A stretch of 64,000 nucleotides of DNA from Escherichia coli O127:H6 str. E2348/69 (GTDB lineage: Bacteria; Pseudomonadota; Gammaproteobacteria; Enterobacterales; Enterobacteriaceae), in assembly GCF_000026545.1 (NCBI RefSeq), contig NC_011601.1. One strand, written 5' to 3'. The position numbers and the translations under genes are program-made. Numbering within the stretch: position 1 is the first letter of the stretch; the number at the start of each line of letters is the position of its first letter. Below the pieces are notes generated by a model. That model was not told where the DNA came from. It worked only from the letters and a program-made list of their open reading frames with translations, and ran no database searches. This document shows, in pieces, positions 49,220 through 50,890 of the stretch.

Positions 49220-50890
49220 TCATTTTTTCGCTCTCACCGGCATCCCATTTGCCACAAAATATCCCGCCGTGCTCCTCGGCAACGCTTCCTTCCCACGAAT
49301 CATATCCGCTATTTTCTCGCCAATCATAATCGTCGTGGCGTTCAAATTGCCGGTGATAATTTGCGGCATAATTGACGCATCCACCACGCGCAGGCCTTCC
49401 AGCCCGTGTACGCGGCCTTCGCCGTCAACCACAGCCATCTCGTCATAACCCATTTTGCAGGTACCGCACGGATGAAACGCGGTTTCGGCGTGGTTACGCA
49501 CGAACTCATCGAGCTGCTCATCCGTCTGGCATTCGACACCAGGGCTGATTTCGCGGCCACGGTATTGATCCAGCGCGGGTTGATGCATGATCTCCCGGGT
49601 GGTGCGAATTGCGTCGCGGAACTCCTGCCAGTCCTGCTCGTGCGACATGTAGTTAAACAGAATCGCCGGATGCTGGTGCGGGTCGCGGGATTTAATCCGC
49701 ACATGCCCACGGCTTGGCGAGCGCATCGATCCGACATGGCATTGGAAGCCGTGCTCTTTCACTGCGTTCGAGCCGTTATAGTTAATCGCCACTGGCAGGA
49801 AATGGTACTGAATATTCGGCCACGCAAATTCCTCACGGCTGCGAATAAATCCGCCTGCTTCAAAGTGGTTGCTGGCACCAACGCCGGTGCCGCCAAACAG
49901 CCACTCCGCACCGATTCTCGGCTGATTCCACCACTGCAGGGCAGGGTAGAGGGAAACCGGTTCTTTGCACTCGTATTGCAGATACATCTCCAGGTGATCC
50001 TGAAGATTTTCGCCGACGCCGGGTAATTCATGCACCAGCGGAATATCAAACTCCGCCAGCAGTTCAGCGTTGCCGACGCCGGAGCGTTGCAGGATCTGCG
50101 GTGAAGCAATCGCGCCTGCACATAACAGCACTTCTTTATTCGCCGCCGCGCGGGTCGGAATGGTGCTGTCGCCTTCCAGCCACTCGACGCCCACCGCGCG
50201 TTTGCCGTCAAAAATGATGTGATCGGTCATGGCGTGAGTACGAATGGTCAGGTTAGGGCGCGATTTGGCCTGATCGAGATAGCCACGCGCGGTGCTGGCG
50301 CGACGGCCATGCGGCGTGACGGTGCGATCCATCGGGCCAAAACCTTCCTGCTGATAGCCGTTGAGATCGTCCGTGCGCGGGTAGCCTGCCTGCATGCCCG
50401 CTTCAATCATCGCTTCAAACAGCGGATTGACGCCGGGTTTGGAGGTGATGACGCTCACCGGGCCATCGCCACCGTGGTAATCGTTCTCGCCCACATCGCG
50501 AGTCTCGGCCTTGCGGTAGTAGGGCAGGCAGTCGAGATAACTCCAGTTCTCCAGACCAGGTTCTTGTGCCCAGTTATCGAGATCCAGCGCATTGCCACGG
50601 ATGTAGCACATACCGTTGATCAGCGATGAACCGCCCAGACCTTTGCCGCGTCCGCACTCCATGCGGCGGTTGTTCATAAACGGTTCGGGTTCCGTCTCAT
50701 AGGCCCAGTTATAGCGTTTGCCCTGTAGCGGGAACGCCAGCGCGGCGGGCATCTGGGTGCGGAAGTCAAAGCGATAGTCCGGGCCGCCTGCTTCAAGCAG
50801 CAGCACGGTTGTGTTCGGATCTTCAGTCAGACGGGTAGCGAGAACGTTGCCGGCTGAGCCGGCACCAATAATGATGTAGTCAAATTGCAA
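49220..50890 (-). CDS. betA: Choline dehydrogenase (GMC oxidoreductase)
   Basis: '[35 protein letters not shown]' FAD-binding N-terminus; apparent TTG start behind a GGAGG SD (ORF track start 50935). Confidence 0.9.

Follow-up and report, generated by a model that had tools for sequence, protein, structure and literature searches.

Initiation at UUG is established in Escherichia coli, where it gives an N-terminal methionine (bioRxiv 10.1101/063800; PMC11445065), and genes of this organism start with AUG, GUG and UUG in 83, 14 and 3% of the cases, respectively (bioRxiv 10.1101/063800). In reporters, UUG initiation reached ~10–100% of that of AUG (bioRxiv 10.1101/063800), and an 8- to 12-fold reduction relative to AUG has also been described (PMC11445065). 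Among individual E. coli genes, cdsA has been assigned a TTG start (PMC11448367), which like that of betA is a near-cognate codon read by fMet-tRNA, and lacI starts with GTG, for which initiation is below the ATG level, as would be the case for betA, and for which an effect of the weak codon on fitness has been demonstrated (PMC11445065). Unlike in cdsA and lacI, the TTG of betA is located at a junction 13 nt past the stop codon of the upstream gene, where coupling may dominate.

The window, i.e., the whole 64,000-nt stretch of the E. coli O127:H6 strain E2348/69 genome (NC_011601.1) that was analyzed, carries the bet genes in the order known from K-12, as judged by Pfam matches of the neighboring open reading frames. 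The betT gene for a BCCT choline transporter (53106–55139, + strand; open reading frame, Pfam BCCT at 587 bits, and annotation) is divergent from betIBA, which is located on the − strand and consists of betI for a TetR-type repressor (52390–52977; Pfam TetR_N and TetR_C_6, with the start as in the RM14723 and K-12 annotations), betB for betaine-aldehyde dehydrogenase (50904–52376; translation, Pfam Aldedh at 600 bits, and related-strain annotation) and betA for choline dehydrogenase (49220–50890, 556 aa plus stop; translation, TIGR01810 and Pfam). The betI stop lies 13 nt ahead of the betB ATG (junction TAACCGAGGAGACGTGATG), and the betB stop TAA (50906–50904) is likewise followed by a 13-nt gap before the betA TTG, with the Shine-Dalgarno (SD) sequence starting 3 nt past the stop; from this position and the equal gap at betI–betB, betA translation is probably coupled to that of betB. 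The betI–betB junction, TAA CCGAGGAGACGTG ATG (52374–52392, − strand), mirrors the betB–betA junction, TAA CCAGGAGGTTTAT TTG: in both, the gap opens with CC, followed by the SD, and this likeness suggests that translation is coupled in series along betIBA. At the 5′ ends of the two upstream genes, an in-frame GTG directly precedes the annotated betB ATG, and betI (52975–52995, − strand) has an in-frame ATG at 52995, six codons upstream of the annotated ATG 52977; the annotations take the downstream ATG, giving 195 aa.

Read on the − strand, the betB–betA junction is CAG TCC ATA TTT TAA CCA GGAGG TTTAT TTG CAA TTT GAC TAC, after which betA continues with ATC ATT ATT GGT GCC GGC TCA GCC GGC. The initiation codon TTG (UUG, fMet; 50888–50890, − strand), assigned from the sequence, the reference annotation and conservation, is separated by the 5-nt spacer TTTAT (50895–50891) from the SD core GGAGG (50896–50900, − strand), which was identified in the sequence and by anti-SD pairing; the SD duplex with the 16S 3′ end ACCUCCUUA amounts to −11.0 kcal/mol. 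A previous reading of this DNA made from the letters alone (the sequence-only reading) had described an apparent TTG start of betA with GGAGG 5 nt upstream, and both elements are exactly as described; the nucleotides 50885–50890 it marked are the TTG (50890–50888) plus the next codon, CAA (50887–50885). Translation from TTG 50890 gives (f)Met-QFDYIIIGAGSAG, with the predicted N-terminus fMet/Met-QFDYIIIGAGSAGNVLATR, i.e., Met-Gln-Phe-Asp-Tyr.

Upstream, the betA frame is closed by the in-frame stop TGA 50950–50948. In-frame ATG and GTG codons are absent from this stop to the GxGxxG motif of BetA, and re-inspection of the interval revealed no in-frame ATG with a ribosome binding site; the sole ATG/GTG/TTG codons in it are TTG 50935 and TTG 50890, and a strong SD is present only at the latter. 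GGAGG-N5-TTG occurs in the window no less often than chance predicts (2 matches, 1.79 expected; at least two in 55 of 100 shuffles), so the motif alone was dropped as evidence, and the weight comes from the position of the TTG, 13 nt past the betB stop and 2–3 codons ahead of position 1 of the BetA/GMC profiles. When the region from −50 to +40 around the betA start was folded as RNA, its structure was not significant (z = −0.59), and there was no sign of a structural switch.

The betA reading frame comprises 556 codons and ends at TGA 49222–49220. Its product scored 1023.3 bits against the NCBIfam betA equivalog TIGR01810 (cut-off 732.1; profile positions 1–532 on residues 4–537) and 996.6 bits against NF002550 (cut-off 605; residues 1–555 on profile positions 4–557). 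The Pfam domain GMC_oxred_N (PF00732, 211 bits) covers residues 3–300, with profile position 1 at residue 3, and GMC_oxred_C (PF05199, 143 bits) covers residues 393–524; the GxGxxG FAD-binding motif is GAGSAG at residues 9–14. Because the conserved domain begins practically at TTG 50890, a downstream start appears impossible and an upstream extension unneeded. The protein is identical to K-12 BetA at 546 of 556 residues, with ten substitutions, and from this identity we infer that it oxidizes choline to betaine aldehyde. The computed mass of the TTG-started protein is 61.88 kDa; Lamark and colleagues, who reportedly published the original bet sequence in Mol Microbiol in 1991, are said to have given 61.9 kDa for BetA, in agreement with this value. 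At the other end of the gene (49220–49228, − strand), a polymorphic homopolymer determines how BetA ends. It is A6 in the window and in K-12 (GCG AAA AAA TGA), which gives 556 aa ending in ...RAKK, and A7 in RM14723, by which the frame is shifted to ...RAKKMSRDLN* and the protein reaches 562 aa. For the O157 betA, the annotation likewise gives 562 aa (1689 nt).

In the K-12 reference MG1655 (NC_000913.3), betA (b0311, NP_414845.1; 325577..327247, − strand) has TTG as the first codon and 556 aa. Its SD, spacer and TTG are identical to those of the window (CCAGGAGGTTTATTTGCAATTTGAC), as is the upstream CCAGGAGGTTTAT; the last betB codon is TTT in the window and TTC in K-12, with the start site showing no difference. 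The betA start annotated by RefSeq/PGAP is likewise this TTG for RM14723, DH1Ec169 (a K-12 derivative), an O157 strain and NRZ100600. From the betB stop up to and including betA codon 13, the five sequences compared show no differences. The RM14723 region is near-identical to the window over an overlap of ~50 kb, in which 40 complete coding sequences start with ATG (36), GTG (3) and TTG (1, betA); one TTG in 40 is in line with the genome-wide ~3%. The term “non-canonical” used in the sequence-only reading is not really appropriate, as bacteria have three standard start codons, one of which is TTG, and ~3% of E. coli genes begin with it. The window does not represent RM14723 itself: although the two are 100% identical over a 601-nt stretch across the junction, of 128 sampled 40-mers they have only 66 in common. 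The common ones begin at approximately window position 19500, and their offset drifts between 13974 and 14074, so that indels and a difference in the left-hand part of the window are indicated.

A broader survey was based on a 601-nt query across the betB–betA junction, which matched 5183 records from 5179 of 5426 complete E. coli genomes. For a 56-mer over the betA start, identity reached 99% or more in 5113 of the 5183 records, a level that its ATG and GTG versions never attained. Since the 56-mer variants could not exclude an ATG combined with a second mismatch, 31-mers with the codon at positions 15–17 were used instead; megablast needs an exact 28-nt word, and each such word in the 31-mer includes the codon. 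The TTG 31-mer matched 5181 of the 5183 junction records (5177 genomes), and the ATG and GTG versions had zero matches in the complete E. coli genomes. In the most divergent 56-mer match, ET734, the TTG is kept, and betA is a frameshifted pseudogene, the cause lying downstream. By these searches, the betA TTG is essentially fixed in E. coli. The supposition that it may be a genuine start thus gains support from the comparison with other strains as well as from the lack of in-frame ATG/GTG codons and the agreement of K-12 and four RefSeq annotations, and the orthologues from other genera described below, with TTG or ATG at exactly the same codon, add to it.

Several features of the junction records concern the distribution of the locus itself. 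The junction had no match in 247 of the 5426 complete E. coli genomes; ten matches were located on plasmids, not chromosomes, and at least one genome contained two copies. The betA gene is inactivated in some E. coli, by an IS1B that cuts it after 222 nt in NRZ100600 and by the frameshift in ET734; NZ_OZ501616.1 (L004) and NZ_CP100922.1 (L087) are records with inactivated betA.

A scan using one genome per species retained 80 betA loci with 80–97% amino-acid identity. The homologous codon is TTG in 31 of these 80 other species, all of them core Enterobacteriaceae (Pseudocitrobacter, many Enterobacter, Lelliottia, Leclercia, Huaxiibacter, the Klebsiella oxytoca group, Raoultella, and Citrobacter amalonaticus with its relatives), and ATG in 43 (Trabulsiella, Pluralibacter, Cedecea, Pantoea, Erwinia, Tatumella, Kosakonia, Mixta, Rosenbergiella and Mangrovibacter), i.e., TTG or ATG in 74 of 80; in six Pseudomonas loci, the betA ATG is located two codons upstream of it. 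That relatives have ATG at exactly this position establishes it as the site of betA initiation. The sequence-only reading had regarded ATG at this codon elsewhere as evidence against a genuine TTG start; its presence in Trabulsiella, Pantoea and other genera instead confirms where initiation occurs. Seven loci of the Klebsiella/Raoultella group and one of Citrobacter amalonaticus offer no ATG/GTG/TTG codon other than this TTG from the upstream in-frame stop to the domain, which makes UUG initiation unavoidable in these eight loci.

The surroundings of the codon are conserved as well. Like E. coli betA, the ATG-start orthologues begin directly after betB, have an SD, and share the N-terminus M-[QEK]-[FY]-D-Y-I-I-I-G-A-G. 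The GGAGG core (CC[A/G]GGAGGT) is present in 31 of 31 TTG-start orthologues, all with an SD of −11.0 kcal/mol and a betB–betA gap of 13–14 nt, against a mean SD of −8.0 kcal/mol and a gap of mostly 19–27 nt in the ATG orthologues. The contrast gives no specific support to compensation of a weak codon by a strong SD, since it is confounded by phylogeny, and in the ATG lineages nearest to the TTG clade (Trabulsiella, Pluralibacter and Cedecea), the SDs are equally strong. In three Tatumella loci (L065, L071 and L072), a tandem in-frame ATG ATG leaves the start ambiguous by one codon. The best non-E. coli BetA proteins among the 80 loci kept, which include no Escherichia or Shigella species, were those of Pseudocitrobacter (95–97% aa identity) and Enterobacter (92–94%), with Citrobacter amalonaticus at 88–89%; this ranking may stem from horizontal transfer of the bet locus, or from the way in which the collection and patterns were sampled.

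In a neighbor-joining tree of the BetA proteins, constructed after removal of the first residue and with unreliable deep nodes, the species with TTG group into one largely coherent clade, which consists of core Enterobacteriaceae; ATG is present in the outgroups and in a few lineages inside. The simplest history compatible with this distribution would be an ancestral ATG, a single ATG-to-TTG change, long retention and occasional reversion. We give about an even chance to the explanation that the TTG is a neutral accident in a weakly expressed inducible operon, fixed once in the ancestor of the core Enterobacteriaceae and inherited without selection. ATG is ancestral in the BetA tree (outgroups Pseudomonas, Pantoea, Erwinia and Cedecea), the largely coherent TTG clade is consistent with a single event, and the presence of ATG lineages amid TTG lineages (Trabulsiella and Pluralibacter) implies that the codon can be switched without obvious harm. 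On the opposite side, the TTG persists while 28 of the 35 amino-acid-invariant codons among codons 2–41 vary synonymously, a comparison that is circular; the invariance of the TTG was dropped as evidence of selection, since the compared group had been defined by having TTG. A more tentative proposal, to which we assign roughly half that weight, is that UUG is actively maintained in the Escherichia–Enterobacter–Klebsiella clade and, together with a maximal SD 3 nt past the betB stop, serves as a fixed-ratio coupling device that would keep synthesis of the membrane-associated BetA below that of the soluble BetB. If so, replacing the TTG with ATG would be expected to harm cells induced by choline and osmotic stress, e.g., through BetA overproduction or betaine aldehyde accumulation.

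The location of the start itself is much less debatable. The other TTG in the interval (50933–50935, − strand), in frame and inside the 3′ end of betB, would extend the protein N-terminally by 15 residues; it is the first ATG/GTG/TTG past the upstream stop, the mechanical list of open reading frames begins there, and it is also present in Enterobacter and Pseudocitrobacter orthologues. This conservation is explained by betB, since the triplet arises from the betB codons GTT GAG, and the SD is weak (−3.8 kcal/mol against −11.0 kcal/mol at TTG 50890). Moreover, the Klebsiella/Raoultella loci, in which a 14-nt spacer places the upstream region in another frame, and one Citrobacter amalonaticus locus contain no upstream candidate; most ATG-start species have an in-frame stop 0–5 codons upstream; the 15-residue extension adds nothing to the TIGR01810 or NF002550 match; and the codon is used by none of the annotations inspected. 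We therefore consider it highly improbable that betA starts at TTG 50935. Even less credible is initiation downstream, at the rare codons ATC/ATT (50875–50867) or at the first internal ATG. Although ATC and ATT can initiate at ~1–2% of the AUG level (bioRxiv 10.1101/063800), here they have no upstream SD (duplex +0.7 kcal/mol), such a start would cut into or remove the β-strand of the FAD fold and the GxGxxG motif (residues 3–14 in the profiles), and all orthologues start at the TTG position or two codons before it. The idea that an ATG was turned into TTG by a mutation in this strain or by a sequencing error has in its favor only the general predominance of ATG starts and is discarded in view of the identical TTG context in 5181 of 5183 E. 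coli records, the lack of ATG/GTG in any of them, and the TTG in 31 other species.

Taken jointly, the codon, its SD and its junction leave us with little doubt that TTG 50890–50888 is the true betA initiation codon, at which the 30S subunit would be recruited by the SD, probably in coupling with betB. According to the mechanism proposed from these sequence features, the UUG would be read by initiator fMet-tRNA to give an N-terminal Met, the GGAGG 5 nt upstream would recruit the 30S subunit, and betA would be translated largely by ribosomes coupled to the translation of betB on the betIBA mRNA. The UUG would be expected to lower BetA synthesis relative to AUG, and through such a weak codon, the amount of BetA, a membrane-associated flavoprotein, may be set relative to that of BetB.

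Since induction of the bet genes requires osmotic stress with choline, the absence of betA from datasets recorded under standard conditions is uninformative. In the accessible part of the TRAINSPOTTER tables, b0311 is not listed, and neither a BetA N-terminal peptide, nor initiation-site ribosome profiling, nor a statement on the betA start codon, nor an experiment on what the TTG means for betA was found in the literature searched, in which the term “betA” collides with “beta.” The observation of the TTG start is correct and ordinary: it is already annotated in the K-12 reference, and as a known start, it is fixed in E. coli and common to its close relatives. The reference annotation of betA is thereby confirmed, and gene finders should not seek an ATG there. 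For cloning of betA in glycine-betaine engineering, the native start should be regarded as weak, and its replacement with ATG should raise expression. With TTG shared by a coherent clade and ATG at the same codon in the outgroups, betA is a clean natural case in which to study how start codons turn over and how translation is coupled in an operon for osmoprotection.
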